A stretch of 20,136 nucleotides of DNA from Reclinomonas americana ATCC 50394 (GCA_048213135.1 PS015026.1:137275-157410); one strand, 5' to 3'. Positions 244 to 20,136 are shown, numbered from the stretch's first letter. The notes: generated by a model from the letters alone, not told the origin. Numbers and translations: made by a program.

Positions 244-2554
244 ATGTCTTCCAAGCGCGTCATGGTGTCTCAAGAAAAGGTGCNNNNNNNNNNNNNNNNN
301 NNNNNNNNNNNNNNNNNNNNNNNNNNNNNNNNNNNNNNNNNNNNNNNNNNNNNNNNNNNNNNNNNNNNNNNNNNNNNNNNNNNNNNNNNNNNNNNNNNNN
401 NNNNNNNNNNNNNNNNNNNNNNNNNNNNNNNNNNNNNNNNNNNNNNNNNNNNNNNNNNNNNNNNNNNNNNNNNNNNNNNNNNNNNNNNNNNNNNNNNNNN
501 NNNNNNNNNNNNNNNNNNNNNNNNNNNNNNNNNNNNNNNNNNNNNNNNNNNNNNNNNNNNNNNNNNNNNNNNNNNNNNNTCTCTCTTTCTTTCGTTAGTC
601 ACAATGTGCAGTCGACTCACTCACACGCTGTGAAGGCACGAGCTGCTCTGCTGGCACACCACCCCTTTGCTCTGTGTGGTGCCGACCTCGCCGACTCTGC
701 ACACACTCTGTGCGCGGTGATTGACTGCCCAGAGAGTGCCTCTCGCATCACCAGTGAAGAGGAGCTTGTCGACGCCGTGGTCTCGGCCGGAAGCATGGTC
801 GGTCAAAGTCACGACCCCAATTGAAGCTGCATGTCGTTCCGATCGTTCGACTGACCGAGTGTAATATTATCGAACATGTGTGTGTCTAGCAATTGCGTGA
901 TGCGTTGTCGGTGGTGGATGTGCAGCAGCTGGCGAGCAAGATGGGCGTGAAGGTGCCGCCGGTGGTGACCAACCCGCGCGCCCATCAGCGAGTGGTGAAA
1001 CAGGTGTGTACGGAAGCGGTGTCTTGTTCGGATTCGAGAACGAGAGAAACTGACTCTTGTTTTGCTGGTGCAGCTCATGCAGCGGTGGACGGAAGAGGTG
1101 GAGGTCGACGACGAGGAGCAGGGTGGCGGGTCGAAGCGGCGACGCGCCAAGAGCTCCTTCAATGTGTTTGTCAGCGATCAGATGCTGGCCATGGCGAATC
1201 CGCAACCGGACGATGTGGAGAATGTGAAGTGAGCGGAGTTGCCTGTGTGTTATCCATGGTGTTGCTGTTCCTCAATCAGGTGATCTTCTACGTGCAGTGC
1301 GTCTGCCCTCAACATGAGAGACAGGATGAAGGAGATCGGTTTGTGTGCATGCATGCATGATGCGTTGTGTGTGGTCAACAGCTGTCCCGTGCTAACGTTT
1401 TTGCCAGCTCGTCGCTGGCGCACCGTGACGCTGGAGGAGCGTGCCGAGTATCGAGATCGAGCAGCGCGTGAGCGTCAACAGCCTACCTCGTCCTCAAAAA
1501 AGGCAAAGAGCGAACCGGAGGCACCAGCCGCAAGCACCACCGCGGCTGCTGCGACTGCAGCGGAATCCGCTCCAGCTTTCACTCCCAAGAAACCCAAGAC
1601 CGCCTACGCCTGTTACACCAGTGCCGAGCGCAGTCGGTGAGCACTATACCGACTATTGGCTCGGCATACTTCCTGCCTGCCTCTCTCACTGCATGCTGCT
1701 CCAGTGTCGTCGCCGAGAATCCGCAAGTTGTCGGTCAGCCCAAGGAGATTACTCGTCTCCTCTGTTGCGTCGCAAGTTGAAGACCACGGTCACCCTTCCC
1801 ACACAAACTCACTTTCCCCGCTCGCAGCTGAAAAGTGGGCGACAGCCACTGCCGAAGTGAAGGCCACGTACGAGGCCATGGCCACGGCCGACCGTGAGCG
1901 GTACCAACGAGAACTGACCACGGGAGAAGTTGAAGGTCTGACACTCATCGTTGACATCGTGACATATTCACGCCGCTCACATGGAGTACAGCACCGCGGG
2001 GCGGCAAGGCACCGTCAGGGGGGAAGCGCGCACCCAAGAAAGCAGCCGACAATGGCGACAGTGGTGCTGCGCCGGCCGCGGCTGAAGAGGACGGACGCAA
2101 GGCACGCTCGGCGTTTGCCATTTTCTCCGCCGCCAAGCGCATGGAGTTGCGTTGCATCCCAGCACCCACCCCAACAATGATACACGCCGTTACTGACGAA
2201 ACTCACAGGAATCCCAACATTCGCCTGACGGAGATTTGTTGCGTTCCCTCCACCGTCTTCCACCCCCCAGTCTCTCCTCCCCACTGACCATCGCACACAG
2301 CGGCACTCTGGCGCGACACCTCCGAGGCCAATCGCGCCCCCTTCCAGGAGGTGGCGGAACGCGAGAAAGCGGCACTGCAGGCCTCCAGTGTGCCGCTGAC
2401 TGCTCTCAGTGCCACACCCGCGCCACCTCTGCCAACAATCGGCGCCGACATGCTGGCGAATCTGCCGCCGCTGCTGTCGACCGACATGGCATCGCTGCCG
2501 CCGCTGCTGGCGACCGACATGGCGTTGTTGCCGCCTCTGCCCCTGCTGCCGTGA
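244..2554 (+). CDS. Multi-exon protein with three HMG boxes (exons approx. 244-279, gap, 612-797, 890-1003, 1074-1228, 1298-1338, 1408-1636, 1705-1763, 1828-1935, 1992-2145, 2209-2237, 2301-2554)
   Basis: GT-AG splicing keeps one open frame and assembles three HMG-box-like units: RRAKSSFNVFVSDQ...MRDRMKEIARRWRTVTLEERAEYRDRAARER; PKKPKTAYACYTSAERSRVVAENPQ...KEITRLLSEKWATATAEVKATYEAMATADRERYQREL; KARSAFAIFSAAKRMENPNIRLTEISALWRDTSEANRAPFQEVAEREK. The 5' part is uncertain because of the gap at 284-579. Confidence 0.85.
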
Positions 2555-2630
2555 TGCAAAAACACAAGCACACACACACACATTCACGTCTATTTCGTCT
2601 TCGTATTCTCTCTACGTGTCTCTGTTGCGA

Positions 2631-5600
2631 CTATGGGGGCGCTTTCCGAATGAAGCACGACACGAAAAAGCCTCCCGTAGCCGTGGTTCCCGGTGAACAG
2701 CGCAGACATGCCGATGCTCCTGCGCACTCGGCGAGTGAGCTGCGTGAGGGGGAGGAGAAACAATAGCGCATAGGCGTACCCTGAAACACCACGTCGCGAC
2801 CGCGGTGTGGCCACGCAGGCATCACGTGCTCCAGCTCAAAGTCCGGACAGGCCTCCAGCACTCGCTGCACCACTCGCTCATTCTCCTCTTCGTGTATGGA
2901 GCACGTCGAGTAGACCATGCGCTGCACCGATGGAACTGCAGTCGGCACACGGACACACAGATAGACGGAGGGGCACAGTGAGAGAGGGTAGAGAGAGAGC
3001 GGGGGAAGAGAGAGAGAGAGGAGGGAGGAGGGAGAGAGAGAGGTGGGAGAGACAACAAAAAGACAGACAGACAGGCAGGCAGAGACACACAGTCAGGCAG
3101 AGAGACAAACAATCACACAAACAAACACGCAGACACATAGACAGACAGACAGATAGACAGATAGGCAGACAGACAGACAGGCAGAGAGACAGACAGACAG
3201 ACAGAGAGGCAGACAGACAGACACACAAACAAACAAGCACACAGACAGGCAAGCAAATACGCAGACAGACAGACAGGTAGGCAGAGAAAACAGCCGGAGA
3301 GGGACAGACAGAGAGACGGAGAGAGAGAGAGAGACAGACAAAACAAACACACAGGCAGACACACAGAGAGACAGACAGACAAAATGTCAAGTGTCGGTGA
3401 AGTGAGTGCTGCCGTGAGCGCAAACAACGCAACAAGAGAGAGCCTTCAAGCAGATCTGCGTCTGGAAACTCGACAGCTTGGAGAGCCGCTCCTGCAGTGC
3501 CTCCTCATCTGCGCAGAGGAGAGTGAGACGGAGGGTGGTGCGAGCAGTGGGTCGCACAAAAACGACGCAACCGACTTGCTCCCACTCGGGTCGATTGGTG
3601 AGGCCACTGCCCGAACATGAGGGGTCACACAAAATGTGCGTGGCTCGCCTCAGCAATGCGTCGTGCTCCGGATCGCATTGCAGGAAGCTGCGCAGGAAGT
3701 TAGTGACGAAGAGACATCATCAACTACATGATCGAGAAAACACAACTCTTCCAGCCGCGTGGTGATGCCTGCACACACAGACGCACAATGAATATCGACT
3801 AGAGATAGAGAGCAAGTCGAGGAACGTGGCACGCACAGGTGGCTCCCGTGCGCTCCACATTGGCGCGCAACGTCTCCATGCGATGCGCGTCACGATCAAA
3901 CGCCACCACCGCGCCCGTGTTGTTCATGAGGGCGGCCAGCAGTGTGGTCTTGTTGCCGGGCGCGGCACATGCGTCGACCACCACTGGCTCGAGCGCAAGG
4001 TCCGCCGAACCACTGGCCTCCCCGTTCGCCGCCTGCCTCTTTCGTCGCTCTTTGCGGTTCAAGGGCGTCGCCGGCACTGCGCTGCGACCGCGTGGTGGAT
4101 CCAACACGAGCGCCGGCAAGCAGCTGCTCTTTTCCTGCACGACCAGCGCACCCGATCGCACCAACTGGTTGCGCAGAATGGCCTTGTCGTCGTGCGCGAA
4201 TACGAGAAGCAGGTGAGGGAAGTCGACGTCCACGGTGAATGATTTCTCCTTTTCCACTTCACTGAAAAGGATAATGAGTGGGAGGTGGTGGTGGGTGGAA
4301 AAGCACGGGCGGGGTGGCGCAACTCAAATGACTCCACGCGACGGTAGCCCGACGACAGCACCTCCACCACCTCCTCCATGCTCGTTCGTAGTGTGTTGAC
4401 GCGCATGTAGCGGGGAATGGAGCGGTCGACTGTGGTGTGTGTGAGTGGGAGGTGAAGGGGAGTGAAAGAGAGTACGTGCGGAAGTACCAGCTTCATCGCG
4501 CAATCGTTCTGGAATGAGATCCTCGTTGCGCTCTACTTGTTTGCGTTTCTGGTTGGCGGAAGGGAGGTTGGTGGGAAACGAGGGGTCGACACAGAGATAC
4601 ACGAGAACACAAGAACGGTGAACATACATGCACAAGGTGCAACACAATGCAGACAGGGAGCCAACAAACACGCACACGTACTTACAATCAAGAAACGCAG
4701 AACAATGGAACACACCGCAAACAAGAAGCACAGTGCAATGGAACAGATGAGCCAATGCAAATGACCACGTAGGCTGAGATAAAGAGAACGCAGAATAACA
4801 CATCACGGACCAACAATAGAGAATGCAAATGCGCAAATGCACTCGTTGACAAAGAGACGCGGCACGCGTAAACAGAAAAGCAACGAAGAGTAACTAAGAA
4901 ACCAAGCACAACACAGTCAAGCAATACAAAGCATGCACAATATAAACAAGGACAATTCACACATAAGCACACACACACACACACAAAACACAAATACACA
5001 TACACATACACGTGTGCGCTCACCTTGAGTGCCTGCAGTGCGTTCTGGAACTTTTGCTTGTTGCCCTGAATCAGCCGCACCGCTGGCGACTTGGAGCGAA
5101 GGCCATTCAGACCGGTGCCAAAGAGCACATCGTACACCAGCAAGTACAGCAGAGGCTTGGAGAGCTGCGCACAGCGGAGGAGTGAGGGCGAATCATCGTC
5201 GCAGCGCAGTAAGAGGGGCTCGCGCAACAGTCTCTGTTGGCTTGAACTGCAGAGGCCAGCAGTTAGCACGAAGAATGCAACAGAAGTGGGGGAACGAAGG
5301 ACCGAACCCGAGTTGCGCGCAACACTTGCTCAATGGCCTCCGAATCTGTCGGCGACAAGGTGAGTGCCATGACAAGCATGCGATGGGAGTGACCACGATG
5401 CAGCGCAACATTTCAGTGTCTGGCACACCAGTGCATACGTGAATCTGAGGGGAGGAGGATGTGAGAGAGAGGGAAGCAAGATCGTCTGCATTCGTGCCAG
5501 TGTGCGCAAGGGGAGGAGAGTGTCGGAGCGAGTGCCTTCGTTTCTCGTGGCAGGGTGAACGATCACAGGGGTGCCAGTGTGAGTGAGTGCGAGAAGGAGA

Positions 5601-6703
5601 GAGAGAGAAAGAGAGAGAACGGAACAGTTCATGATTCACTCTCTCCGGCATGCACGCGATCAGAGATCACTCTTGCTGCTGCCTGTGTGTAAGAGTCGAG
5701 TGCGAGAGTGTGACAGAAAGACAGAGAGTATGAAGAGCTCCTCGACTCACTCTCGCCTTGCACGCATGATCACTTCTGTGCTCTCTCTGTGAGTGCGTGT
5801 GAGTGTGAGAGAATGAAAGAGCACCTCGTGAGTCACTCTCGCCTTGCATACATGCAAGCAGACGGAGATCACTCTTGCTGCTGCTGCTCTCTCGCTATGA
5901 GTATGCGAAAGAGACAGCACCTCGATTCACTCTCGCCTTGCATGCACGCAGTCAGAGCTTACTCTTGCTGCTGCTGCTGCGCTCAATCTCTCTCTCTCTC
6001 TCTGTGTGCATAAGTGTGAGTGTGAGAGAACGAAAGAGCACCGCGTGATTCACTCTCGCCTTGCATACATGCAGACGGAGATCACTCAGGCTGCTCTCTT
6101 TCTCTCCCCTAACTCTCTCTCTCTGTGCATAAGTGCGAGTGTGAGAGAACGAAAGAGCACCGCGTGATTCACTCTCTCCTTGCATGCATGCAGACGGAGA
6201 TCACTCAGGCTGCTCTCTTTCTCTCCCCTCACTCTCTCTCTGTGCATAAGTGTGAGTGTGAGAGAACGAAAGAGCACCGCGTGATTCACTCTCGCCTTGC
6301 ATGCATGCAGACGGAGATCACTCTTGCTGCTCTCTTTCTCTCCCCTCTCCCCCTCTCTGTGTGTAAGTGAGTGAAGAGCACATCGTTCAGTCTCTTCTAG
6401 CAGTCACAGATCTCTCTCTTTGTGAGTGTGAGTGTGACCTAAAATCATGATGCACTCCCTCCTTGCATGCATGCATGTACTCACAGATCACTCCTGCTGC
6501 TCTCTCTCTGTGCATAAGTGTGAGTGTATGACAGAAGCACTCCGTCATTCACTCTCTCCTTGCATGCATGCACTCACTGTCTCTCTCTCTCACTCGTTTC
6601 ACACGCACTTCTTATTCTTCACCGCATCGCGCAACGACAAGTCACGCGCACTGCCTCGCCTCGCCCACACATCACCCAACACCCTCTCCGCATCATTATA
6701 CAT
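2631..6703 (-). CDS. NSUN5: NSUN5/Rcm1 large-subunit rRNA cytosine-C5 methyltransferase, 13 exons (6703-6609, 5444-5410, 5345-5308, 5246-5229, 5164-5024, 4548-4488, 4429-4324, 4261-3837, 3768-3747, 3687-3572, 3508-3434, 2935-2780, 2719-2631)
   Basis: Spliced product contains MYNDAERVL...[86 protein letters not shown] and GFFVSCF. These are NOL1/NOP2/Sun motifs plus the NSUN5-type N-terminus, and all exon phases are consistent. Confidence 0.95.
2950..3382. repeat. Degenerate (GACA)n/(GA)n microsatellite tract filling NSUN5 intron 11
   Basis: Runs of gaca/gagaga seen directly; lies inside the intron at 2936-3433. Confidence 0.9.
5575..6580. repeat. Tandem minisatellite, unit about 118 bp, roughly 9-10 copies, inside NSUN5 intron 1
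   Basis: Near-identical units (gtgcataagtgtgagtgtgagagaacgaaagagcaccgcgtgattcactctcgccttgcat...cagacggagatcactc) start at about 6006, 6125 and 6242, with more diverged copies on both sides. Confidence 0.9.
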
Positions 6704-6990
6704 CACACTGACAAACACACACACTGACACAAAGAGAAGAAGAGAACAAAGACACACACACACACACAGAAGAGGAAGAGAGCAAAAAAGACACAGACAC
6801 TCGCTCTCTCTGTCTTTCTCTCTCTCAGACACACACACACACACACACACACTCTCACACACACACACACACTCTCTCTCACACAGACACACGCTCGCTC
6901 TTCAATCGTTCATTGTAATCGACTGAAATGCGTCTGTTGATTTTCTTCTTTTGTGTTTGTTTGTTTGTGTTTTGTTTGTTTGTTTTTCTT
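6704..6990. promoter_or_regulatory. Probable bidirectional promoter region between divergent NSUN5 and CFAP157-like start codons
   Basis: Head-to-head ATGs at 6703 (-) and 6991 (+), only 287 bp apart; the interval is mostly CA/CT and T/GT-rich low-complexity sequence. Promoter function is inferred from position only. Confidence 0.5.
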
Positions 6991-7218
6991 ATGGCTGATG
7001 ATAGCAATGGAGATGCTTCGTTGTCGTTTGAGAATGAGCTGATGGCGATTCAGATGCGGTTGGCGGGCGCGGAGCAGAGGTTGGGCGAGAAGGTGTGTGT
7101 GTGAGAGAGAGTGTGTGTGTGTGTGGGAGAGAGATAGATGGAGTGTGAGAGAGAGAAAGAGAGAGCATTGTGTGAGGGAGAGAGATCGACTTGTGATTGT
7201 TGATTTCGTGAAGAGTGT

Positions 7219-7276
<58 letters not shown>

Positions 7277-10200
7277 TGGTGTGTGTGTGTGAGAGAGAGA
7301 GAGAGAGTATGTGCGATGTTGGACTGCGTTGTGTGTGAGAGATCGTTCTGTGATGAGCAGTTGTGCACTCTCACCTTCTCTGCCTGGCCCTCTTCCTCTC
7401 TCTCGTGTCTGGTCTCTCTTGCGTTTGTGAGCAAAGTGCGATCGTTGGTTGTTTTGTGTGGCGTGGAGACTTGAAAGTGAGAAACGCAGTCGTTCTTGGC
7501 CATGTGCACGTGTTGCTGAGCGTGTGTGATCGCTCAGCGTTGGTGTGTATCGGTGTCGATCGTCGTTTTTCTCGTCTCTCAAACACATTCACAAACCGTC
7601 ATCTCTCAGCGCCGTTCTTTCTCTCTCTCTTTCACACACACTCGCACGATTACTCGCACAGTCACGGTTCGCTGGTGCGTGTTCTCAACACGTAGGCGAC
7701 GGCTGCTTGCTTACCGTTGTTCTTTCGTCGCCGTTCTTCTCTCCCTCCTCACTCCACGTGTGTGTATTTCTCAGCGCGTTGCGATGGCAAATCGCTTATC
7801 GTTGTCTTTCGTCGGTGTTCTTTCTCTCCCCTCTCTTGGTTCACACATTTGCACGATTACTCGCACAGTCACGGTTCGCTGGTGCGTGTTCCTCAGCACG
7901 TAGGCGATGGGTGCTTGCTTACCGTTGTTCTTTCGTCGCCGGTCTTCCCTCCTCCTGTCCTCCTGGACGTGTATTCCCCAGCTCGATGGCGATGTGGATC
8001 TCTTATCGTTGTCTTTCATCGCTGTTCTTCGTGCCGTCTCTTGCATTCTCTGTGACATGCTTGCACGATTACTCGCAGTCGCGGTTTCTGTGCGTGTGAT
8101 CCTCATCACGATGGCGATAGGTGCTCCCTTTCCGTTGTTCTTTCGTCGGCCCCCTCCTCTCCATACGGGTGTGTATTCCCCAGCTCGATGGCGATGGCAG
8201 ATCGCTTATCGTTGTCTTTCGTCGCCATTCCATCTCTCCTCATGCTGACACATACATGCACCTTTCTTGCACAACTGCGGTGCTCGTGTGTTCCGTAGAC
8301 GTGATCGCTTGCTTTCTCATTTCTCGATGCCGATCGCTTTTGTCACTTAAACGCAGTGTACCTGTCGTTCTACTTCTGTCGTCTGTCTCTCCCATCTCGC
8401 ACTCGCACAACCACGGTGTACGCACCCCACATTTCGTTTGGGATGCCATGTTATCGTCTTTCGTCTTCTATCGATGACAATCATCGATCACGCATCTCCA
8501 TACCGCACACTGTCGCATTCTCTTCTCCCTTGCATTGCTCTCTTGTACGATCCCTCTTTTGTCATTGCTGTTGCTCTCCCCCTTCACCCTTTCACCCTCC
8601 CTCCTCTCTCCCCAGGACAACATCATTGAACAACTACGAGCCTACTGCGTCAGCCTGCAAGAACAACTGGAAGACGTCAAGGACGACCTGCGCACGACTG
8701 AGGAGAAGTGTGCGGTTCGTTATCCCCCATCCCTCTTCCACCCTTCCCCCCTCCCTTCCCCCGTCATCCCCACCCTTCTCCCACCCGTAGGTGGAGGTCT
8801 ACGTGGTCAAGGAGGAGAAAGAGTCGGAGGTGCTGGAGAAGGAGGTGACGATCCGCTCACTGCAAATCGAGGTGGAGCGGCAGAGCAACGAGGTGGCGCT
8901 GTACCGGCAGTACGAGTTGGAGAACATCAAGCTGCGCAAGTCGGTGGTGGAGCTGCAGGAGCGACTGTTGCGAGTGGAGCGGGAGTCGACGCACCGGGAA
9001 CGCGACCTGAAGGAGGACATTGCGAGATATCGCTCGATGCTCGACGAGGAGTTCCGCTCGCAGCTCGCCTCCAGCGAGGCGCGCTTTCGACAAATGGCAT
9101 TCGACGATCTCGACGAGGAGGCCAGGAAGGCTCTCACCGAGAATCGCAAGCTGCACAAGGCGCTATCGGAGCAGAGCGATCAGGTGGAGTTGATTCTCGA
9201 GCGCGCACGCCATCTGGAGGCCGAGAAACGGAAACTTGTGCGTTTTTCATTCATTCTCGCGACATTCATGTCGTCTTCTTCTTCTTGTATGCTGATTATT
9301 GGGGTGGCGCAAAAAAAGACGGTGGACGTGTCGGTGAGCCACGAGGCGGAGGATTTGCGCTCGCGGGAAATGAGTATTCTGCGCAAGCGGCTGTACGAGA
9401 CGCAGACGAGAGCGACACAGCTCGAGGATGCGTTGCGCACGAGAGAGGTGGAGCAGGCGTCGATGCAGCTGTTGTACTCGGAGTTTGAAGTTGCGGCTGC
9501 GTGGTGGAGGGAGCGCGATGTCATGACCGGTCCTCACATGCTGCATGCAGCGGCTGCGTGGGGAGTTGGAGGAGACCAAGAAGAAATACGAAGCCGCCAA
9601 GCTGGAGGCTGAAAGGTGGCGCGCCAAAGCAATGCATGGCGCCAGCAGTGAGCCCGAGTCGTCGGTGCGTGCTGATTTCCGTGCTAGTTGCATTTCACGA
9701 GATACAGAAAAAAAGAAGTCTCACTTGTCGCGCATACAGTTTCTCTCTCGCCTTCCGCCACGAGTTGCGCGTCGTTTTTTGCCCCGTATTGTGGTCCTCA
9801 CTCGTGGCCGTTACTCACAACTCCCACCGTTTCCTTTCCAATCCTCCCCCCACCTCCCGCACGCACAGTTCCGCGCCGATCGAGGTTTGTCTGCTTTGGC
9901 GCACGCATTTTTTATATATTGAGTGCGTGTTTCCGATATCGGCGGTGAAAAAATTCTCACAATACACAACACCACCACGGCAGACGACGAGGCAGCAATT
10001 GACGAGACGCATGCCAGGAGGATAGGCGACAGCGAGGAGGACACCAGGCGCATCTGGAACGCGCAGCTGTCGGGTGATTCCACCCTGGGCGATCGTCCTG
10101 TTTCACTCTTCTCCTCCAGCGAGGCCTCTTCGCCCACGCAGCAGCCGCCGCAACCCCTTTCGGCGTCTGGCTCCGAGGGGCAACAGCAACGCACGCGCGC

Positions 10201-10411
10201 TGCACCGCCTCCCTCACCGCACCTCTACCCGGGTGGACCGCTGCGCTCGGAGGCCGAGCGCGTGGAAAAGGATCGCGCACTCAGCGTGCTGAACAAGGCC
10301 TCGGTGCGCGTGGTGGCCAAACCGGCCAGGCGCGCCGATGCTGCGGCAGCACTGGCGGCCAACGGGCTTGGTGTACAGGGACGCGCACCGGTTCGTTACG
10401 TTGTACCGTGA
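6991..10411 (+). CDS. Long coiled-coil protein, CFAP157-like (exons approx. 6991-7092, 8616-8714, 8791-9237, 9319-9489, 9551-9664, 9740-9763, 9869-9884, 9984-10411)
   Basis: Phase-consistent GT-AG splicing gives an E/K/R/L-rich heptad protein. The segment FRQMAFDDLDEEARKALTENRKLHKALSEQSDQVELILERARHLEAEKRKLTVDVSVSHEAE resembles my recollection of the cilia/flagella-associated protein 157 family, so the family call is tentative. Confidence 0.7.
7093..7310. repeat. (GT)n/(GA)n microsatellite at the start of CFAP157-like intron 1
   Basis: Alternating gtgt and gaga runs seen directly. Confidence 0.9.
7630..8240. repeat. Tandem repeat, unit about 210 bp, about 3 copies with an internal sub-repeat, inside CFAP157-like intron 1
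   Basis: gcacgattactcgca recurs at 7644, 7851 and 8063. Each unit carries two related blocks, gcttaccgttgttctttcgtcg and gcttatcgttgtctttc. Confidence 0.85.
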
Positions 10412-11394
10412 CAGTGAAAGGGAAGAAGGCACGAGAAAGACGGGCCGGGGGTCACGCGGGCAAGTGAGTCTGTTTTCAGCACCGATTGCCTTTTCAAGTG
10501 GCAGGCTCCGCCTGGCTGCTGTGCCCATAGCATCTTTCGCACGGACGATGACCGCCGCACGTCGCCATGCTGTAGCATGTCCTACACACCCGATGCCGCG
10601 GCGTCCTCTCAGCAAGGACCGCATCCACGCGCGAGATTCCCGCAGGCCGGCGCCTCCTTTCGGGCACGCCATGCGACATTCGTCTTTCGGCATTACCGGC
10701 GCCGCGAATGAGCATCGATAGGTCCACGCTCAATGGCTGTGTCCCCCCTCTCTCTCTTCCCACCCACTGACACAGGCGCATGGGTGGGCGTGTTGCGTTG
10801 TGCGTGCACATATATTCATTGGTTCGCACAACAAGAATAGAATATGTGGTGGCGACCGAGTGGCCTAAATTGAATCTTGCGCGACACGATCGTGTGCACA
10901 CGTCAGCAACGGTCGCCAACGACACCTCCCGCAACGCATTGGGCGACAGCAGTGCTCCCACCGGATGCCCACGGCGCGAGGGTGAGTTGGGGTCGCCATG
11001 ATGTGCTTTAGCCGTTTTCGGCGATCACTGCTGTATCGTGCGCGGATTGTTTTCACTTTATTCTTTTCCTTCCCTCCAGTCGTGTTCGTATCTCACTTTC
11101 CCTTTCGCTGCGCGCGCAGGTTCGTTGCCAGCGCGGGTGGAGCCCCGGGGCGCCCGCGATGACGACGAGACACGGCGGTTGTGCACAATCAAGGCAAGCA
11201 GGTGGCTTTTCGATTGGTCGTTGCCCATTGACGAAAGACGTTTGCCCTTTTTTGCCGCCGTGACCACGAAGCGACACAGAACACAAATTGGACGACGGAG
11301 CGGAGCGCGCGCGCACACTACCTCGAACAAACGACGCGGAGAGAGAGAGAGGAGAGAACACGCATTCTTCCTGTGCCTTCTCCTGCCTTCTTCC

Positions 11395-11988
11395 ATGGAT
11401 CAATCGTCTGCGGCCTTGCTTCGCGGGCCGGCCCCCACCAGTGGCAACAGCAGCAACAGCAGCAGCATCGCAGCTTGCCTTCAGCAGCACCACCATCTCA
11501 ACCCTCTTCTTCACCACCACCACCACCACACTCAGCAGCAGCAGCAGCAACAGCAACAGCAGCAACAGCGGTACTCTGACGGTCTGCTGATGGCCGGCGT
11601 CTCCACCTTTGGCGACTCGATGCACGAGCACGGTGGCCGAGTTCCTGTTTCCGTCGTGTCGCGCACCAGTGGATCCTTTGTGCTGCCGCTCTCCATGGTC
11701 GCCGTCGATGACCCCTTTGGCCAGGCACAGCAGCAGCAGCAGCTCTATCAGCAGCAGCAGTTCCAGCTCTTGCGCCAACAACAACAGCAGCAGCAGCAGC
11801 AGCAACGAGCGGCGGTTGGCGACGATTATGATGGTGCTGCGGAGGATCAGCAGCTGGACTTTGATGGCCTCGTCCACCGACAGCGCCTGCAACAGCAGCA
11901 GCAGCAACTCCAACAACAGCAGCGACAGTTTATGGCGACCGCTTCTTCCTCAGACGGGAAAGCATATTCGTCGTCGGCGTTTCAACAA
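11395..11988 (+). CDS. N-terminal polyQ/polyH low-complexity part of a putative transcription regulator (runs into gap)
   Basis: ATG at 11395 opens MDQSSAALL..., with several CAG/CAA polyQ tracts, open up to the N gap. It probably continues in 13892-12721 (-). Confidence 0.7.
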
Positions 11989-12177
11989 NNNNNNNNNNNN
12001 NNNNNNNNNNNNNNNNNNNNNNNNNNNNNNNNNNNNNNNNNNNNNNNNNNNNNNNNNNNNNNNNNNNNNNNNNNNNNNNNNNNNNNNNNNNNNNNNNNNN
12101 NNNNNNNNNNNNNNNNNNNNNNNNNNNNNNNNNNNNNNNNNNNNNNNNNNNNNNNNNNNNNNNNNNNNNNNNNNNNN

Positions 12178-12408
12178 CTGTTGTCGACCGTGGCCACTCG
12201 TGAGCTGGTCCATGCCGTGGTGGAAATGAGTGGCGTTCTGGCGCTGGTCGACTTCTTCTTGTACCTGGGTGCCTTCTTCACCGAGATGAACCTGCAAAAG
12301 CCGGTGCGGTGCCTGACCATTGCCGATCGCTTGCTGGGAGTGGAAGAGTTCGACATTCGGGCACAGCGCAAGGAGTACGCCAGAGCCACAGGAGGTGCCA
12401 GTCGGTGA
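12178..12408 (+). CDS. C-terminal part of an RDD-family membrane protein
   Basis: LLSTVATRELVHAVVEMSGVLALVDFFLYLGAFF...RCLTIADRLLGVEEFD matches the RDD C-terminal pattern (xxRE, hydrophobic helix, TxxDxxxG). Composition is unlike the polyQ ORF before the gap. Confidence 0.7.
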   Translation: MLSTVATRELVHAVVEMSGVLALVDFFLYLGAFFTEMNLQKPVRCLTIADRLLGVEEFDIRAQRKEYARATGGASR

Positions 12409-12720: not shown

Positions 12721-12811
12721 TTAGTGACGCTGACGCTTCTGCGGCGGCGGCGGAACCGCGTATGCGGCAAGCTGACTGCCGAGTGCGCCACCCATGTGCA
12801 TGCGTCGGTCG

Positions 12812-12844
<33 letters not shown>

Positions 12845-13892
12845 GCATCCCCATGACGGGCATCGTCAGTGGTGGAGCCGATAAACTCGGCGTTTTCGTC
12901 GTCGTCGTCCACGGCGTCGCCAAAAGCACGGCTGTACGCACGGCGTCGGCTGGACACTTGCTTTTCGCGAGTGCCTTCGTCATCATCAATGGCCAACAGC
13001 TCGTCGTCGTCCAGGCTGCGCCCGCCCGACTGTTGCAGCTGATGGTGATGATGCAGTTGTTGCTGGTGGTGATGGTGTTGTTGTTGTTGCTGCTGCTGCT
13101 GCTGCATGTGAAGATCATGCATGTAGCGCAGGTGCTCCTTGCCGTCAACGTCGGCGCCGGTGGAGTACGAGTCGGCAGCCGCCAGAGACGGGGGAGGACG
13201 GTGGCAAAAGGCCAGTCGATCGTCACTCGCGCCACCGCTCTGATCTGAGGAGGCGGCACCAGCGTGCGAGCTGCGCGAGCGGCGACTGCCCAGTGGGTTG
13301 CCGGCGCGGTTGTAGATTTTGCCCTGTGCATGCACCCACTGTCAGCAACCATGACAGATACAAGAGGCATCTCAATACAGAAGAAAGAAAACTCAACGGT
13401 GCGCTTGGTGCGACGCTGGAACAGGCGGAAGACGGTGGAGACGGCACACAGGCGTCCATCCACCTCCAACACGAAGCGCATGTACGGGCAAGTGGCGCCC
13501 GGCAGACGGCTGATGCGGAACACAATGGTCACAAAGGAGCTCTCACCACTGCCGGCCTTGGCGGAGGCACCCGACGAGTACGACAGCGGCATCTGCCTGC
13601 CCGGCGAGTCGGCCACCGGTGTGCCCGCCGCCGACGACACAGAGCGTGACGGCTTCTTGGCGCCGGGCGCCAGGTTCCATGACAGCTGCACCTCGTGGGT
13701 GGAGTCCAACATACCGGCCAAACTGGACGGGAGAATTCCCCCGACACCACCCGGTGTGCCGGCCAGCGAGCCACCAGAGGAAGAGCCGGCGGAGGCCATG
13801 TGCGGCGGCAGCAGCGCGCCATGCAGCAGGCCGTGCTCCGGCGCCATCTCCACACGGAACACCACTCGGGATGGCTCACCCAAGTATGGAAT
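12721..13892 (-). CDS. C-terminal part of a polyQ/H, poly-Asp putative transcription factor (exons 13892-13398, 13323-12721)
   Basis: Acceptor gtgcgtag precedes IPYLGEPSRVVFRVEM. A beta-rich block FVTIVFRISRLPGATCPYMRFVLEVDGRLCAVSTVFRLFQRRTKR is followed by Q/H and D tracts and a terminal PPQKRQRH (NLS-like), then TAA. Confidence 0.7.
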
Positions 13893-13970
13893 CTACGCAC
13901 AAAAATGGGATCGATATCAATCATGAGTGCTCCCACTCAACACACACACGNNNNNNNNNNNNNNNNNNNN

Positions 13971-14919
13971 CGCCTGCACGTTACACGTTCTTCAGCTGAC
14001 GACAACTCGGAGGAGGAGACAACTCCACACACACACACACACACACCTGCGGCGGCTTGCTCGGATCCGTCAGTTCCTCAGTAGACGCCACACCAATGCC
14101 CATCATGCGCTGCTTGACCACGGCACCGACCACGTACGACAAGGCCGCAAACGACACACACGTGATCAGAACACGATTCGGCAGCGCCTCCGCTCCCTGT
14201 CGTGCACCACCGACTCTCGCCTGCGCCGGTGCATCCATTGCCACTCCCAGCCGCAACATCTCCTCCTCTTCCACGCGACTCCGATGCAGGAACGTAAGGA
14301 AGGACACGAAAGCAAAGGCCAACACCGAGGTGACGATCCACGAGCTGCTTGCACACAACAACGATGAAATGAGGACCGCAGCAGTGACGGGAAGCGATCA
14401 GTGCACGCAACAGAAAGCGTGCCAGCAGTCGCTTGAACATGCTTGGTGGACGGATCTTGATCTTGGTCGGTGGCACAGGTGGAGGCGGAGGCAGCGCCAC
14501 ATAGGTGACTGCCACTGGCGGTGGCATTACGCCGGGTGTGGGCAGTGCAACGGGAGGCGGTGCACTGACACCCACACCCACAGAGGCCGCCACTGAAGCA
14601 GCAGCAGCGTCGACACCACTGCAGGCGAGAGTGAGGAGAGAGCAAGAAGAGTGTGACCGAACACACACACGAAACGATGATGGTGGCGACGGGGGAGAGG
14701 GAGGCACTGCGGCTGCGGTGCTATTGTTGCGCGCGGGGAGCAGCAGCAGAGAACGCACAGTGGTGGTCTGTGGCGCAGGGTGGTTACGTGCAGACAGTGT
14801 GAACAGTGTGCGCACGTGCGGCACTGTCAGCGCACTGCGAGGCACACACAGCGAGGGTGAGTGGCGGTCTCTCGCGTGCGTGTGTGCGGGATGAAAAACA
14901 CTGACCGTGAGAACCACAT
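13971..14919 (-). CDS. N-terminal part of an RDD-family (FAM8A1-like architecture) membrane protein (exons approx. 14919-14906, optional 14767-14759, 14618-14412, 14344-14047, 13973-13971)
   Basis: Pro-rich N-terminus, then PSMFKRLLARFLSWIVTSVLAFAFVSFLTFL and LITCVSFAALSYVVGAVVKQRMMGIGVAS, resembling the RDD motifs RRLLARLID and GKRLMGIRVV. The start exon is uncertain. Confidence 0.65.
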
Positions 14920-15055
14920 GAGCTCTCCTCTTTGCAGCGCGATGAGAATAAAACCCTCCCGCCCTTTCCAACAGTTTTTTTCTGCTCACCGGAGAAGATG
15001 CATGCTGCTACTTGTGGAGCGAGTGGTGGTCGAGATTCACATTCTTTATAGACTA

Positions 15056-15345
15056 CTACTGCACTGGGTACCACAACATGTGGATCTCCGAGACCATGAT
15101 TTCGCAAAACGCATACTCGGCACCCTGTGCGGCGGACGAGTTAGTTTGAAGCAGGAGCACACTCACAACTCGAGTCGACTCACCATGGCGACAACCTGTT
15201 CCAGCACCTCCGCCAGATCGCTCTGCAGCACCGAGACCAGTCGCTGACGCTTCGTTGACTCCTCGGTGGGGAGCAGCAGCTTCGCCTCCGACCACAGCAC
15301 AGCCAGCAGGTTCTCAATCATGTCTGCCACACGACATGAGTTTTA

Positions 15346-15406
<61 letters not shown>

Positions 15407-15452
15407 NNNNNNNNNNNNNNNNNNNNNNNNNNNNNNNNNNNNNNNNACTAAC

Positions 15453-15509
<57 letters not shown>

Positions 15510-18500
15510 CTCGCAATCGAGCGACGCAACAAACAGTATTGTCGAGACCGCGACTCAATTCCGCGCTCTGCTGCTCCAGCTGCCGCTGCACCAGCGCCTC
15601 TAGATCGTGTGGTGGATATCGCATTGCAGATCCCTTGTCGCCGAACGCGATCTACGCAATACCCACCATTGAGCACACCATTTCCCTCCATCCATCCATT
15701 CTCCTGCTCACTCGCCCGTCACGCACCTTCATCATCTCCGCCTGGCTCAGATCATTTGCTTGCTTCTGCCGCACGTCCTCCAGTGCGCGCTTGAGCATCT
15801 CAAAGCGGTTCACCGCATACCGCAACGACTCGCGCATCACATCCGAGAGCGTCGGCTGCCGAGTGCTCACACCTCGGTGACCTGTACGATCGGCTCGTGA
15901 GGAAACAGAAGAGTATAAATGCGAGAGAAGCGGTTGCAGAAGTACATACCGAGCTCCAGCGCAAGTTGTGGCGGTGAAAAGAGCGGCTCCTTGGCTCCTG
16001 TTTGCGCCTCCCGCACTGTGTTCATCGTCAGTCATTGGGTGGACGACGTAGGAGGAATGGAAACGAAACACGTACCCATCACCACTTGCCGGCAGTGCGT
16101 AATCAAATTCTTGGTGATCTTTTCGCACAGACGAACCACTGTGCGATAGAACGGAGTGGTCACGCACACGGCATGGAACAGGATGCAGTTCACAAAAAAG
16201 AAGCCACGCACCAGCAGGCGCGAGCGTCGACGGGGAGGTCGACAGCAGTCGCACGTATCGCTCAAGAAGGGCAGGGAGTTGGCTCTCGTATTTGAGCAGC
16301 TTTGGCTTCAACTGTGTTTTCAAAAAAAAAAAATGAGCACGTAAAAAAGCCACACCCAGACCAGAGAGAGAGAGAGACGAAATGCGCAACATTCCGTCGC
16401 AGAGCACCCGCGGACAATAACCACAGCGAGGTGGCCTGGTAAATCATCTGCAAGGTGACAGTGTCGCTGGTCTCTTGCAGCTTGAAGGCGCGCGAGAACA
16501 GACTCGAGTGTTGCTCGATGAAATGTGCCACCTGTCACAGCATCACACGTCAGCGCAAGCGCACACACTCACAATGGCACACAATGCTCGCAACGGCATC
16601 CTGCGGCTTGACTGAATCGAATTTGGCCAGCTCCGACAGCAGAGTGAAGCACGCCGACAGATACCGCTCGTGTCGCTCCGCCACCGACATGTGGAACCCG
16701 TCTGCAGGAAAAAAACAGCATGATGAGTGCACAGCATTCTCGCTACGAGCGGCGGCGACACTTACCAGCAGTGCGCAGCGTGTGTGCATTCGGCGACCTC
16801 CAATCCGAGTGGATACGACGCAGGTACTTGGCACTGTTCAGCACCTCTACAGTGTTGCAGTTGCACAGCAGCTCCACACCGCTGTCCTTTTGCGCCAGCT
16901 GCGAGAGGAACGACAGGCGCGACTCGAACAATTTGAGCCAGTAGTCTGTGTGCGCATTCGTCTCGGTCGCGTCAGCAGTACGTCTCATGTGGGGAAAACA
17001 ACAAGACTCCGCACCAGACATCTCCTTCGTCGACTCCATCAATGCATTGTCCAGCTCCACCAGATCTGCAGGTGACATGAGCAACACTTACTACACCCCC
17101 AGTTCTCCGACACAAATGCGCTCACCATTGACGAGCTCAACCAGTGCATGCTGGTTCAAGTGGCGCAGCAGGTGCTCACGAGTCTGCAAGTCGAACAATG
17201 CGGAGAGTGCCGCATGCGCCACTGGCTTCCACTCGCGCGGGCCGTTGCAGCAGTCGGCACAAATCATGTCACACAATGCGTTGTCGTACTGCGTCAGGCG
17301 TGCCTGTTGCTCCGTCTCCAGATACACGGCGGCCGTCGGTGCACCGGCATACAACTGCTGCAGCACTGCGGATTCCTCCTTTGATTGTTGCGCCAAGTTG
17401 GCCGAGTATCTACCATGCACAGTGTGAGAGCGATTCGCAAGGCAACAGAGGGACGCTGTGGACGAGACCTGGAGTAGTGCATCAGCACCGTGTACAAACA
17501 GCCGCGGACGTCTGGGTGGAATTTGACTGAGGCGGCCAGTGCTGCCAGCAGCGCCTGCAGGAGGTCCACGCAGTCCTTGACCACGTTGGCGTTCTTCACC
17601 GCTGTAAATCCACATGAGGTAAGTTAAGAGACATGTGACTCTCGAGAGATATCATTCGCCACCCGACGAACCGTGACCCTCACTCTCGCGTCGCAGCTTC
17701 ACCATCAACACGATGCACGCCTCGCCGAACAGCTTGCGCAGATTCGCCGGCATGCTGTGCTCCGCCAGGTACACCAGTAGTCTCTGCAGCAGCTGGAACA
17801 CCACGCGGTACTGGTCCTCGGGTGGAATCTCCGTGAACCGCTTGGACAAGGTCACTTCCACGACCTGCTTCCATCCGCGGAAGAGATTCAGCACGTCGGC
17901 CTCAGCATCACTCGCCGAGTTCCACTGTGACGCAAAGGTGACCAACTGGCGAATCTCATCAGACGCCTGCGAGGTGCGTCAAACAAGTTAGCAACACGTC
18001 CTCTGCCATCGCAACCCACGCTCTCCGAATCTCGACTCACCTCCACCACACTGCGCTGCGTCTCGGCCAGCACACGGAAACACACAGCCAGAATCGTGGG
18101 GATGCTGTAACGCGTCTCGCCCATTTCCGACATCTGCGAAGCATGCAGAGTGAGTGCGGCAGCACACAAGCACAAGTGGGGCGCCAACTGAGAACGGAAC
18201 CTCCTTGCACGAATCGACATCCACCTCAAAGAGGATGCTCAGCCGTGGTCGCTCCGGCCGCGGGAACACCCCATACGGCAACGCCTCCAGCCACTGCAAC
18301 ATCTGGAACGAACCATGGTCGCGAGCCACATCCACAAACTGACTGCCGTACGACGACACTTCGAGTCTGCAAAGAGGGGAGAGTTGGCAAGGAGAGCGTT
18401 GAGAAGAGGAACGCACACGGCACGACGCACCTCTGCCACACGCTCTGGTACAATTGAGAAATCACGGTTGACACTTGTCGTCGCACATCGTCTCGTCGAT

Positions 18501-19168
18501 GGTCTGCGCACGAAAGCACACAAATGTCGCGCTCAGTGTACGAGGTATAACCATGAATACCAATGACAAATATAACGCACCGAGGAAGAGTGCAATCGCC
18601 GTGGTCTGGAACAAGTATCCGTGGCCGCGAATGCGCATCAGATCGGAAACGAATTCGGGACTGTCGAGGTCCAACGTCGGCAGCGGCAGAAGTGGACTGG
18701 CGAACAACTCGCCGAGAACGTCCGTCTGCAGCACACACTTTGGTTGGTCACCATACACTTAGCCCGTCTGACATGCACGCGCACGCAACATCTGACGCTT
18801 GCAAGTAGCCAAAGAGAGCCTCGGCCGTGTGGCGGTCTGCCGCAAACACCGACACGAGCTGCATGGCCAGTGCGTACAACTCGGGCTGCTCGCCTGCATC
18901 CGCCACGAGGATCTGCCGCACGGCGCGCAAACACGACTTGTCTCGGGTTGAACTCGAAGTCACTGCCGAGGAGAGCGCCGATCAACATCTCTGTCTCCTT
19001 GAGCACACACGCACAGAGTGATGGCACATATATTGCGCAACAGTAGTACTCGTCAGCAATGCCATCGTCGCGCATGAAGCCGCACAAAAAGTGCGACAGA
19101 GTGTATGTGTTTGGCTTGGCGCAGCGGATGAGGAACTTGAGGAGCCAGCCACGCATCTCCGCTTGAAC
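15056..19168 (-). CDS. NUP205: Nucleoporin Nup205/Nup192, C-terminal half (about 20 exons)
   Basis: Spliced segments resemble Nup205 in the expected order: MRGWLLKFLIRC...LSHFLCGF, FRGWKQVVEVTL, VRGCLYTVLMHY, LCDMICADCCNG...AALSAL, LFESRLSFLSQLAQKDSGVELL, VAHFIEQHS, YMIENLLAVLW. Stop TAG at 15056-15058. Confidence 0.85.
15349..15507. repeat. (CA)n microsatellite spanning a gap in a Nup205 intron
   Basis: Pure ca repeats on both sides of the Ns at 15407-15446. Confidence 0.95.
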
Positions 19169-19313
19169 CTGTGACAAATTATGAGTCGGTGGTGAGCATC
19201 CTGGGGNNNNNNNNNNNNNNNNNNNNNNNNNNNNNNNNNNNNNNNNNNNNNNNNNNNNNNNNNNNNNNNNNNNNNNNNNNNNNNNNNNNNNNNNNNNNNN
19301 NNNNNNNNNNNNN

Positions 19314-20105
19314 CTGTTGCGAGATGCGATGAATCAGCCGGATCACTTGCCCGAAACACTGCTGAAGCTCGTCGAGTCTGCGCTGGTCGGCACCGACCGC
19401 GTCGAGTTGCACGAGGGTATGTTTTGTCACCACGCTTCAGGCACACCGCACTGTTGTGTCGCTGACGATCTCCATTCAGGACGCTGGATGGAGGAGTATG
19501 TGTTGAATGCGCTGCGGCTGCTCGACTTTTTGTTGCGACGTCAGGACGCATTCCGTGAGCTGTCGAACCAGAACCGCGGAGGCGTGCCACTGCATAGTCT
19601 GGACGAGTGGATTGCTCGCCAGATGAAGTACGTGCGCAAACTCTTCCAGCTGGCCTCGTACCGCTACAATGCCGAGGTACTGTTTCGTCATGCAATCGAG
19701 TTCAATCCTGCCACTTACTTTTGTGCCCGAATGCAGGTCCGCCTCTATGCCGCCCGAGTCCTCTACTCGCTCTCCGATCAGCACCAGTCCATGTTCAGCT
19801 TCCTGTCCCTCATGTCGGAACATCCGCTCATTATTGCCGACCTGAACGACTCGCTGGAGGACGCCGATATCGCGTACGACATTTTCCCCGACGAGGCCGA
19901 CCAGACAGACTACGTCGCCTTCTCGAGTTGCGTGCGCGCTCTCTGTCTCTCATTCCCTCATTTGTTCCTCTGCTTCGCTCACGCACTGTTGCGTGCAGAC
20001 CAAGAGAAGACGGAGCGGTACACGCTGCAGCAGTATCGAGTGGGCGGCGTGGAGGTGCTGTCAGCCGATCTGCGGGAGGCCGATCCAGTGAGACAGCGGC
20101 AGCTG
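19314..20105 (+). CDS. NUP205: Nup205/Nup192 middle segment (exons approx. 19314-19416, 19480-19676, 19737-19926, 19999-20105), opposite strand to the rest of the gene
   Basis: MEEYVLNALRLLDFLLRRQDAFREL...LHSLDEW...VRLYAARVLYSLS...IIADLNDSLE resembles the Nup205 region immediately before the segment that starts at 19168 (-). It ends at a phase-0 donor, gtgagc, at 20106. Confidence 0.75.
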
Positions 20106-20136
20106 GTGAGCGCACGTGAAGTGTGAGGAGTGCCGA

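Follow-up and report, generated by a model that had tools for sequence, protein, structure and literature searches.

Two classes of 5' splice sites that differ in the last exon base in a 20-kilobase nuclear region of Reclinomonas americana

How is a 5' splice site recognized when it appears to ignore the last base of the exon? The question is raised by a stretch of DNA of 20,136 nucleotides (nt) from Reclinomonas americana ATCC 50394 (GCA_048213135.1 PS015026.1:137275-157410, hereafter the window), which is eukaryotic nuclear DNA with about 55% G+C and five assembly gaps. Among the 56 donors that we inferred in this region, 17 begin with GTTGCG, a word present 39 times on both strands of the window where 18.4 copies were expected, a number reached in none of 100 shuffles.

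Numbering the first intron base as +1 and the last exon base as -1, the base before the GTTGCG donors was T in ten cases, A in five, C in one and G in one, exactly the counts given in an initial annotation of this DNA, whereas the other 39 donors were preceded by G (32), T (4), A (2) or C (1). By Fisher's test of G against non-G, the difference between the classes (1/17 versus 32/39) had a p value of 8.4e-8. The initial annotation had also put a G before about 30 of about 34 ordinary donors; we counted 29 of 34 once low-confidence and unverifiable sites were set aside. With the same test the association held for the 27 high-confidence donors (1/10 versus 13/17, p = 1.3e-3), for high- and moderate-confidence donors together (1/12 versus 23/28, p = 1.9e-5), in a worst case in which ten alternative donors were taken and low-confidence or unverifiable ones dropped (1/12 versus 23/38, p = 2.2e-3), and among the 67 introns of automatic, uncurated calls, 42 of them shared with the curated set and 25 not (1/16 versus 25/51, p = 2.5e-3). 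Within the window, the covariation of the -1 base with donor class is real. It extended to the near relatives GTTGTG, GTTGAG and GTTGTT, preceded by A, C and T, respectively, whose pooling with GTTGCG gave 1/20 versus 32/36 (p = 4e-10), while the donors beginning with GTTC or GTTT had a -1 G in 6/6 cases. Exceptions existed on both sides: the high-confidence GTTGCG donor 3571 (donors are named here by their first intron base) carries a -1 G, and a -1 G is missing from three ordinary donors graded high or moderate, namely 1229 (A), 3836 (T) and 9238 (T), the latter two being GTGCGT.

The base before the GTTGCG donors resembled that before the 1019 sense-strand GTs of the same genes that are not donors (T438, C251, G170 and A160), implying that -1 is under no constraint in this class. 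As T precedes 438 of these GTs, the T before GTTGCG is background; it also precedes 10 of the 22 non-donor GTTGCG words. Measured against codon-position composition, A or T was in excess at -1 of the GTTGCG donors (15/17 versus 6.1 expected, p = 1e-5) and G was depleted (1 versus 5.9 expected, p = 0.007). What separates the classes is that ordinary donors strongly require a -1 G and GTTGCG donors do not; the contrast does not stem from a preference for T.

Introns were called with an exon-chain finder whose donor score used intron positions +3 to +8 only, so that the last exon base never swayed a call. Its first two passes merged genes and picked many non-consensus donors, and the third placed false introns in repeats and missed in-frame ones. 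Because of this noise the introns were curated manually on three-frame views, on the basis of forced frame changes and in-frame stops, of the branch word and acceptor, and of homology; in ambiguous ordinary cases the consensus-like site, which has a -1 G, was preferred. Genes were placed by Pfam matches on stop-to-stop frames and by homologue searches, as follows.

244-2554, plus strand: gene A, HMG-box
about 5443-2632, minus strand: gene B, NSUN5
6991-10411, plus strand: gene C, coiled-coil
11395-12408, plus strand: Q-rich gene with no supportable introns
15003-12724, minus strand: gene EF, no family assignment
19168-15056, minus strand: gene G, C-terminal half of a Nup205/Nup192 nucleoporin
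19314-20105, plus strand: piece H, Nup205, matching residues 797-956 of the Nup205 homologue P0039

The six curated models (A, B, C, EF, and Nup205 as G and H) are all single open frames after splicing, and three of them reach natural stops. In NSUN5 the junctions were gapless against the closest homologue, P0002, and retention of its introns led to stops in 9 of 11 cases and to a lower P0002 score in the other two. Spliced G aligned to P0039 over 846 residues (E = 1.4e-40) and spliced H matched the same protein with E = 8e-12, whereas the unspliced DNA of H gave no match. We graded 27 of the donors as high confidence, 13 as moderate, 10 as having an in-frame alternative and 4 as low; 2 are unverifiable, 280 (its intron enters a gap) and 20106 (its intron meets the window end). 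When the in-frame alternatives were scored against homologues, the differences were at most 9 score units, too small to decide between them. The 54 introns that lie completely inside the window all have GT...AG ends, with CAG (48), TAG (5) or AAG (1) acceptors. The GTTGCG donors and their near relatives, eight of the former being fixed by homology or domain spacing, are the following (a slash marks the junction).

1763..1769, plus strand: T/GTTGCG, gene A intron 1764-1827; high confidence, frame change with stops, HMG-box spacing restored
2145..2151, plus strand: A/GTTGCG, gene A intron 2146-2208; high confidence, third HMG box restored
2237..2243, plus strand: T/GTTGCG, gene A intron 2238-2300; high confidence, in-frame stop within the intron
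5404..5410, minus strand: T/GTTGCG, NSUN5 intron 5409-5346; high confidence, gapless against P0002, retention gives stops
5223..5229, minus strand: T/GTTGCG, NSUN5 intron 5228-5165; high confidence, gapless against P0002, retention gives stops
4318..4324, minus strand: A/GTTGCG, NSUN5 intron 4323-4262; ambiguous, alternative C/GTGCTT at 4306 with AAG-type acceptor (P0002 score 976 versus 970)
3566..3572, minus strand: G/GTTGCG, the sole -1 G case, NSUN5 intron 3571-3509; high confidence, gapless against P0002, retention lowers the score from 976 to 947
3428..3434, minus strand: T/GTTGCG, NSUN5 intron 3433-2936 (498 nt, with an (AGAC)n array); high confidence, gapless against P0002, retention gives stops
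9489..9495, plus strand: A/GTTGCG, gene C intron 9490-9550; high confidence, frame change needed, no other in-phase donor
9763..9769, plus strand: A/GTTGCG candidate, gene C intron 9764-9868; low confidence, needs a 24-nt pyrimidine-rich exon, alternative a single intron 9665-9868
14406..14412, minus strand: T/GTTGCG, gene EF intron 14411-14345; high confidence, frame change into a membrane-like frame
19036..19042, minus strand: T/GTTGCG, Nup205 G intron 19041-18963; ambiguous, in-frame T/GTGCGT at 19014 scores 467 versus 463 (P0039)
18784..18790, minus strand: T/GTTGCG, Nup205 intron 18789-18726; high confidence, the only usable donor given a stop and a frame change
16589..16595, minus strand: C/GTTGCG, Nup205 intron 16594-16532; ambiguous, in-frame T/GTGTGC at 16582 scores 472 versus 463 (P0039)
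16385..16391, minus strand: T/GTTGCG, Nup205 intron 16390-16312; moderate confidence, frame change, CTCAT branch, T-run and CAG acceptor
15525..15531, minus strand: T/GTTGCG, Nup205 intron 15530-15324 (containing gap 15407-15446); ambiguous, phase 1 required, T/GTGTGT alternatives in a (GT)n run
19926..19932, plus strand: A/GTTGCG, piece H intron 19927-19998; moderate confidence, in frame, stopless, pyrimidine-rich, CTCAC branch, homology score 137 versus 136
3741..3747, minus strand: A/GTTGTG, near relative, NSUN5 intron 3746-3688; high confidence, gapless against P0002, retention gives stops
13392..13398, minus strand: C/GTTGAG, near relative, gene EF intron 13397-13324; high confidence, frame change needed
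16997..17003, minus strand: T/GTTGTT candidate, Nup205 intron 17002-16946; low confidence, in frame, stopless, homology score 463 versus 463

The GTTGCG class is present in all six gene models, with 3, 5, 2, 1, 5 and 1 donors in A, B, C, EF, G and H, and beyond the donor word its introns are like the rest. Their median length was 64 nt against 68 nt for the others; CAG acceptors closed 17/17 of them and 31/37 of the others; a CTNAY branch word was found in the last 50 nt in 14/17 and 28/37, at a median distance of about 17 nt; and the intron phases were similar (6/8/3 versus 15/15/7). This likeness indicates that the same branch and 3' machinery serves both classes. In their GT and AG ends, their branch word, and the open frame and homology gained upon removal, these introns agree with the U2 type. 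The ordinary donor words are degenerate (GTGCGT, GTGAGY, GTRYGT, GTTYGT, GTC and others, where R is a purine and Y a pyrimidine), with a common G at +5 and T at +6: the -1 G and the +5 G were each present in 31/38, and +6 was T24, C7, G6 and A1 (38). In contrast, the 17 GTTGCG donors all have T at +3, G at +4 and C at +5, and their +7 was T9, C6, G1 and A1, so that the preference seen at +6 of ordinary donors recurs one base deeper. The ten unused GTTGCG words on the sense strand had T at +7 in 1/10 cases, against 9/17 for the donors (p = 0.04). Finally, 17/19 donors of the form GTTGNG carry C at +5, whereas the equivalent +4 of the 19 GTGNG donors was C7, A8 and T4 (p = 0.0019), a bias (17/19 versus 7/19) implying that +5 is read by something.

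To what extent could the U1 small nuclear RNA (snRNA) account for these donors? The canonical U1 5' end was assumed, as in Table 2 of PMC4856993, and for each register the best nearest-neighbour energy was taken with only register-consistent pairs permitted. Ordinary donors other than those beginning with GTT paired in the canonical register with a mean of -6.7 kcal/mol, whereas the means for the 17 GTTGCG donors were -0.16 kcal/mol in the canonical register, -0.15 shifted by one base and -0.27 with U+3 bulged. Comparing these energies was the check that the initial annotation had proposed for its idea of a shifted register, and it spoke against the idea: neither alternative brought a real gain, the +1 shift being no more stable than the canonical pairing and the +2/+3 bulge falling short of a gain of at least 1 kcal/mol. 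When U1 positions 3-6 were varied over all 256 tetramers and the register-free duplex energy of the donors was compared with that of 1009 decoy GTs from the same genes, the canonical tetramer ranked 1/256 for ordinary donors (area under the curve, AUC, 0.865) and 200/256 for the GTTGCG class (AUC 0.243), which pairs worse than the decoys do. As the canonical U1 is the best for ordinary donors, the organism very probably has it. The idea that both classes share one altered U1 5' end was rejected: GC-rich variants led on raw energy only, and for ordinary donors the decoy control favoured the canonical sequence; raw energies without decoys were discarded as confounded.

The window thus contains two donor classes with different dependence on -1 in otherwise identical introns, and one of them has no complementarity to canonical U1 in any register. 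There is good support for the GTTGCG class and for its independence of the -1 base. As to how it is recognized, we tentatively favour, at somewhat less than even chances, a separate reading of GUUGCGY wholly through intronic bases by a reader other than canonical U1, because the energies give no support to a shifted or bulged reading by the same U1, which also predicts a variable or A-rich +5. Ordinary starts (39/56) would pair with the universal 5' end of U1 over the span from C9 (opposite exon -1) to A3 (opposite +6), whereas the second kind (17/56, or 20 with GTTGTG, GTTGAG and GTTGTT) would present the near-invariant GUUGCGY, with GCGY one base deeper than in the ordinary GUGCGY. The reader would contact all of GUUGCG including the +5 C and leave the exon -1 contact unused; the simplest candidate would be a second U1-type 5' end complementary to GUUGCG, or else another RNA or a protein. 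In a later step, G+6/Y+7 would replace G+5/U+6 as partners of the U6 ACAGA box, one U being looped out, and cleavage would stay in front of GU. In ordinary donors G+5/U+6 pair with this box (PMC11732430). The displacement of GCGY by one base is a fact of the alignment and its functional meaning is supported by the +7 preference; the U6 stage offers the most natural explanation, since a +7 that mirrors the ordinary +6 is expected if U6 pairs one base deeper. The existence of the reader, its identity and the U6 offset are what we infer from these donors. Taken to its full form, the proposal would have two parallel first-step readers, the universal U1 for degenerate donors leaning on the -1 G and a second U1-like or other small RNA complementary to GUUGCG for about 30% of the introns, with U6 one base deeper; as a complete scheme this is doubtful.

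Several points weigh against a separate reader. It would be deduced entirely from sequence, and we are aware of no organism where a large share of introns depends on a second U1-type 5' end. A reader working in the normal register would still gain a pair from a -1 G, so that its intronic helix would have to be strong enough already. The energies assume unmodified RNA and ignore pseudouridines and the proteins of the small nuclear ribonucleoprotein, leaving room for a weak shifted pairing with the ordinary U1. The sample consists of 56 donors inferred from 20 kilobases, and 5 of the 17 GTTGCG donors are insecure (4323, 19041, 16594 and 15530 have alternatives and 9764 needs the 24-nt exon); for 19041 and 16594 the homologue scores slightly favour the ordinary alternative, although both alternatives also have T at -1.

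The explanation that survives best beside a separate reader is that GUUGCGY is read one base off by the canonical U1 (and U6) that also serves ordinary donors, either shifted, with G+1 on C9, or with U+3 bulged, and that cleavage occurs before GU; this is possible, though on the unlikely side. Human sites provide proof of shifted, bulged and asymmetric-loop registers (PMC4856993 and PMC9311317), the shifted and +2/+3-bulged ones being proven in human cells, and the first of these papers assigns validated noncanonical registers of all kinds to 1.5% of 201,541 human sites. In the shifted-register sites of Roca and Krainer 2009 (cited in PMC4856993) the pairing block on the intron side is displaced inwards by one base and cleavage still precedes GU, as here, and G+1 would likewise face C9 of U1, leaving exon -1 without a partner. 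Such human sites are rare and show a clear energy gain, whereas the GTTGCG class makes up 17/56 donors, is near-invariant and has no predicted gain. The initial annotation had equated GTTGCG with G/GTGCG moved by one base. The alignment bears this out, with one mismatch, and the +7 preference agrees with it, but the energies and the near-invariant +5 C do not: a plain shift predicts that +5 varies as the ordinary +4 does, and the base found is C even though A pairs better with U1. The same annotation had proposed that G+1 could take over the role of the exon -1 G, which fits the GTTG relatives that lack a -1 G and the GTTC and GTTT donors, unable to use the shift, that keep it, but not a shifted pairing of about 0 kcal/mol; and its notion of mutually exclusive registers is too strong in view of G/GTTGCG at 3571. 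An A at -1, which would pair with U10 upon shifting, preceded 5/17 donors against 1/22 non-donor GTTGCG words (p = 0.07), and the probable presence of canonical U1 also agrees with a shared reader. However, register-free folding, in which these sites fall below the decoys, speaks against it, and GUUGAGU pairs far better when shifted (13397, -2.7 kcal/mol), yet the ratio of C to A at +5 is 17:1. For the bulge +2/+3 and asymmetric-loop registers (Roca et al. 2012; Tan et al. 2016, as represented in PMC4856993), GU-U-GCGY can be seen as GUGCGY with one U looped out. Those registers leave C9 free for an exon -1 G, which should then stay favoured, and the GTTGCG class does not use it; PMC4856993 takes at least 1 kcal/mol over canonical as the mark of a bulge, and the GTTGCG class gains 0.1.

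A less probable account, which we consider improbable, invokes no special register or reader: the known exon-intron compensation, in which AG//GUNNN and NN//GURAG sites differ in reliance on U5 loop 1 or the U6 ACAGA box, would make GTTGCG a frequent, strong word read in the normal register. Two classes in one genome with opposite dependence on -1 and on intronic bases are known in many species (Parker, Fica and Simpson 2025; PMC11732430), and the background-like -1 of GTTGCG donors would agree with this. Nevertheless, the known sites without a -1 G have +5 G with a purine at +3 and A at +4, a combination absent from 17/17 GTTGCG donors, where the exon-independent word is GUUGCG with +4 G, +5 C and +6 G. 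Neither do these donors resemble AG//GUNNN, with G at -1 and A at -2, their -2 being A4, C6, G4 and T3. In normal numbering the class would be without both exon and intron contacts, and U1 pairing in that register is about 0 kcal/mol. A seesaw of -1 against +5 is at odds with a GTTGCG class that lacks the +5 G as well; nor is there a seesaw among the ordinary donors, the exon-dependent class here, as they carry both the -1 G and the +5 G.

It is very improbable that the classes or their association are an artefact of donor picking or of small-sample chance. The introns were inferred from sequence, ten donors have in-frame alternatives and four are of low confidence, the preference for consensus-like sites in ambiguous ordinary cases brought in -1 G, and a self-trained gene finder could reinforce GTTGCG. 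Against this stand the survival of the association in the sensitivity tests, including the high-confidence set, the worst case and the automatic calls blind to exon bases, which makes an artefact unlikely, and also the gapless NSUN5 junctions, the stops or lower scores upon retention, the open frames of all spliced models and the long alignment of spliced Nup205 to P0039.

A separate spliceosome analogous to that of U12-type introns is the least credible of all, since, although an invariant intronic word of 6-7 nt and a free -1 are U12-like features, the 5' word is unlike the U12-type consensus and the CTNAY branch about 17 nt from the 3' end, the intron length and the CAG acceptor are common to both classes.

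Returning to a separate intronic reader, its logic has parallels. In U12-type introns and in the GUAUGU introns of budding yeast a long, near-invariant 5' intronic word frees the exon side; here the word differs, the branch and 3' signals are shared and individual genes contain introns of both classes. Animals have variant U1 snRNAs whose 5' ends are altered and which would likewise give a second U1-type reader of other specificity, such an RNA being hypothetical here; to our knowledge they do not serve a large, defined class of constitutive introns. Among the 15 matches listed of 1,040 papers in the full-text literature, which were primers and unrelated uses, we found no description of a GTTGCG or GUUGCG donor class; a text search of this kind would miss a class shown only as a logo in a genome paper.

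Three other candidate explanations were rejected. An introner or transposon origin of the class found no support on inspection by eye, with no shared sequence past the first 7 bases and no target-site duplication. Pairing of the 5' word with the 3' end of its own intron fails as CGCAG acceptors are found in both classes. A one-base slide from G/GTGCGY by a change of G+1 to T shifts the frame, and the acceptor is unable to slide by one.

The remaining, ordinary donors are these.

279..285, plus strand: G/GTGC.. candidate, gene A exon 1; unverifiable, intron enters gap 284-579
797..803, plus strand: G/GTCGGT, gene A intron 798-889; moderate confidence
1003..1009, plus strand: G/GTGTGT, gene A intron 1004-1073; in-frame alternative at 1019, also G/GT
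1228..1234, plus strand: A/GTGAGC, gene A intron 1229-1297; high confidence, ordinary without -1 G
1338..1344, plus strand: G/GTTTGT, gene A intron 1339-1407; ambiguous, alternative T/GTGCAT at 1345
1636..1642, plus strand: G/GTGAGC, gene A intron 1637-1704; high confidence
1935..1941, plus strand: G/GTCTGA, gene A intron 1936-1991; high confidence
5302..5308, minus strand: G/GTTCGG, NSUN5 intron 5307-5247; high confidence
5018..5024, minus strand: G/GTGAGC, NSUN5 intron 5023-4549; high confidence, removes a 7-residue insertion relative to homologues
4482..4488, minus strand: G/GTACTT, NSUN5 intron 4487-4430; high confidence
3831..3837, minus strand: T/GTGCGT, NSUN5 intron 3836-3769; high confidence, ordinary without -1 G, gapless against P0002
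2774..2780, minus strand: G/GTACGC, NSUN5 intron 2779-2720; high confidence
7092..7098, plus strand: G/GTGTGT, gene C intron 7093-8615 (1523 nt, with a 207-nt tandem repeat); moderate confidence
8714..8720, plus strand: G/GTTCGT, gene C intron 8715-8790; high confidence
9237..9243, plus strand: T/GTGCGT, gene C intron 9238-9318, the sole AAG acceptor; moderate confidence, in frame and stopless, called on T-rich composition only
9664..9670, plus strand: G/GTGCGT, gene C intron 9665-9739 (or to 9868); moderate confidence
9884..9890, plus strand: G/GTTTGT, gene C intron 9885-9983; high confidence
14984..14990, minus strand: G/GTGAGC, gene EF intron 14989-14835; moderate confidence
14661..14667, minus strand: T/GTGTGT candidate, gene EF intron 14666-14619; low confidence, in a (GT)n run, in frame
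14041..14047, minus strand: G/GTGTGT candidate, gene EF intron 14046-13893 (containing gap 13951-13970); low confidence
18575..18581, minus strand: G/GTGCGT, Nup205 intron 18580-18504; high confidence
18425..18431, minus strand: G/GTGCGT, Nup205 intron 18430-18367; ambiguous, alternative C/GTGTGC at 18418
18195..18201, minus strand: G/GTTCCG, Nup205 intron 18200-18134; high confidence
18035..18041, minus strand: G/GTGAGT, Nup205 intron 18040-17967; ambiguous, alternative C/GTGGGT at 18019
17666..17672, minus strand: G/GTTCGT, Nup205 intron 17671-17602; ambiguous, alternative A/GTGAGG at 17683
17463..17469, minus strand: G/GTCTCG, Nup205 intron 17468-17410; moderate confidence
17120..17126, minus strand: G/GTGAGC, Nup205 intron 17125-17066; high confidence, stops within the intron
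16760..16766, minus strand: G/GTAAGT, Nup205 intron 16765-16702; high confidence
16206..16212, minus strand: G/GTGCGT, Nup205 intron 16211-16139; moderate confidence
16070..16076, minus strand: G/GTACGT, Nup205 intron 16075-16016; ambiguous, alternative T/GTTTCG at 16069
15944..15950, minus strand: G/GTATGT, Nup205 intron 15949-15882; high confidence
15721..15727, minus strand: G/GTGCGT, Nup205 intron 15726-15652; moderate confidence
15178..15184, minus strand: G/GTGAGT, last Nup205 intron 15183-15125; ambiguous, alternative T/GTGAGT at 15166 giving a 42-nt intron
19416..19422, plus strand: G/GTATGT, piece H intron 19417-19479; moderate confidence, retention lowers the P0039 score from 137 to 120
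19676..19682, plus strand: G/GTACTG, piece H intron 19677-19736; moderate confidence, retention lowers the score from 137 to 112
20105..20111, plus strand: G/GTGAGC candidate, piece H; unverifiable, the window ends at 20136

The three GTC donors, 798 (GTCGGT), 1936 (GTCTGA) and 17468 (GTCTCG), all have a -1 G. Inside the Nup205 intron 18040-17967 there is a GTTGCG at 18015 that is out of phase. The gene C model includes exons of 24 nt (9740-9763) and 16 nt (9869-9884), and the former, which is pyrimidine-rich, may instead be part of one 204-nt intron. Two further candidates in this region stand outside the donor set: a GTCGGG at 10069 would open an in-frame, stopless 51-nt intron with a good pyrimidine tract, and an intron 10395-10479, C/GTTACG...TTTTCAG, would start 15 nt before the gene C stop and, if used, replace the C-terminus of the protein.

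Three introns are far above the usual 50-100 nt, with 498, 475 and 1523 nt, and are filled with repeats (3050-3381, 4560-5010 and 7093-8615): an (AGAC)n array of 82 copies, A/C-rich simple sequence and the 207-nt tandem repeat in 3 copies. Between NSUN5 and gene C lies another tandem repeat (5924-6369; 117-nt unit, 3.2 copies, 93% matches), and inspection by eye shows more diverged copies as far back as about 5560. A good NSUN5 acceptor is present at 5444, but tblastn did not find the first exon of the gene, which has about 40 residues in P0002; it may lie within or beyond the repeat region (5444-5700 area). Long coding runs of poly-Q/poly-H (CAG/CAA) and poly-D (GAC) occur at 12724-13323 and 11395-11988, in the two genes without family assignment.

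Gene G matches residues 970-1863 of P0039, and the segment matched by H lies just before. As H, on the plus strand, encodes the Nup205 segment expected directly upstream of minus-strand G, the small contig after the gap 19207-19313 seems to be inverted in the scaffold, unless there is a real inversion at the locus. Rfam and transfer RNA scans found no snRNA or transfer RNA genes in the window. The window's proteins are themselves absent from the protein collection, where the top NSUN5 match had 40% identity over the exon; with a Nup205 exon, a word-based search gave no match and HMMER gave 6 distant ones. No genomic NSUN5 of a close relative was found among the 80 metagenome loci kept, most of which had 27-43% identity to the query, two short partial matches reaching 53 and 57%, and these loci did not enter the comparison.

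The reading of 5' splice sites by U1 with its invariant 5' end belongs to the best-conserved processes in gene expression, and the known exceptions (shifted or bulged registers, U12-type introns and variant U1s) are rare or weak. The class described here is near-invariant over seven bases and ignores an exon base needed by other introns of the same genes; at about 30% of introns, it would represent a natural experiment on how a splice site is handed over from U1 to U5 and U6. In practical terms, gene finders trained on one donor model would mis-call a third of the introns in such a genome, as our own first passes did.

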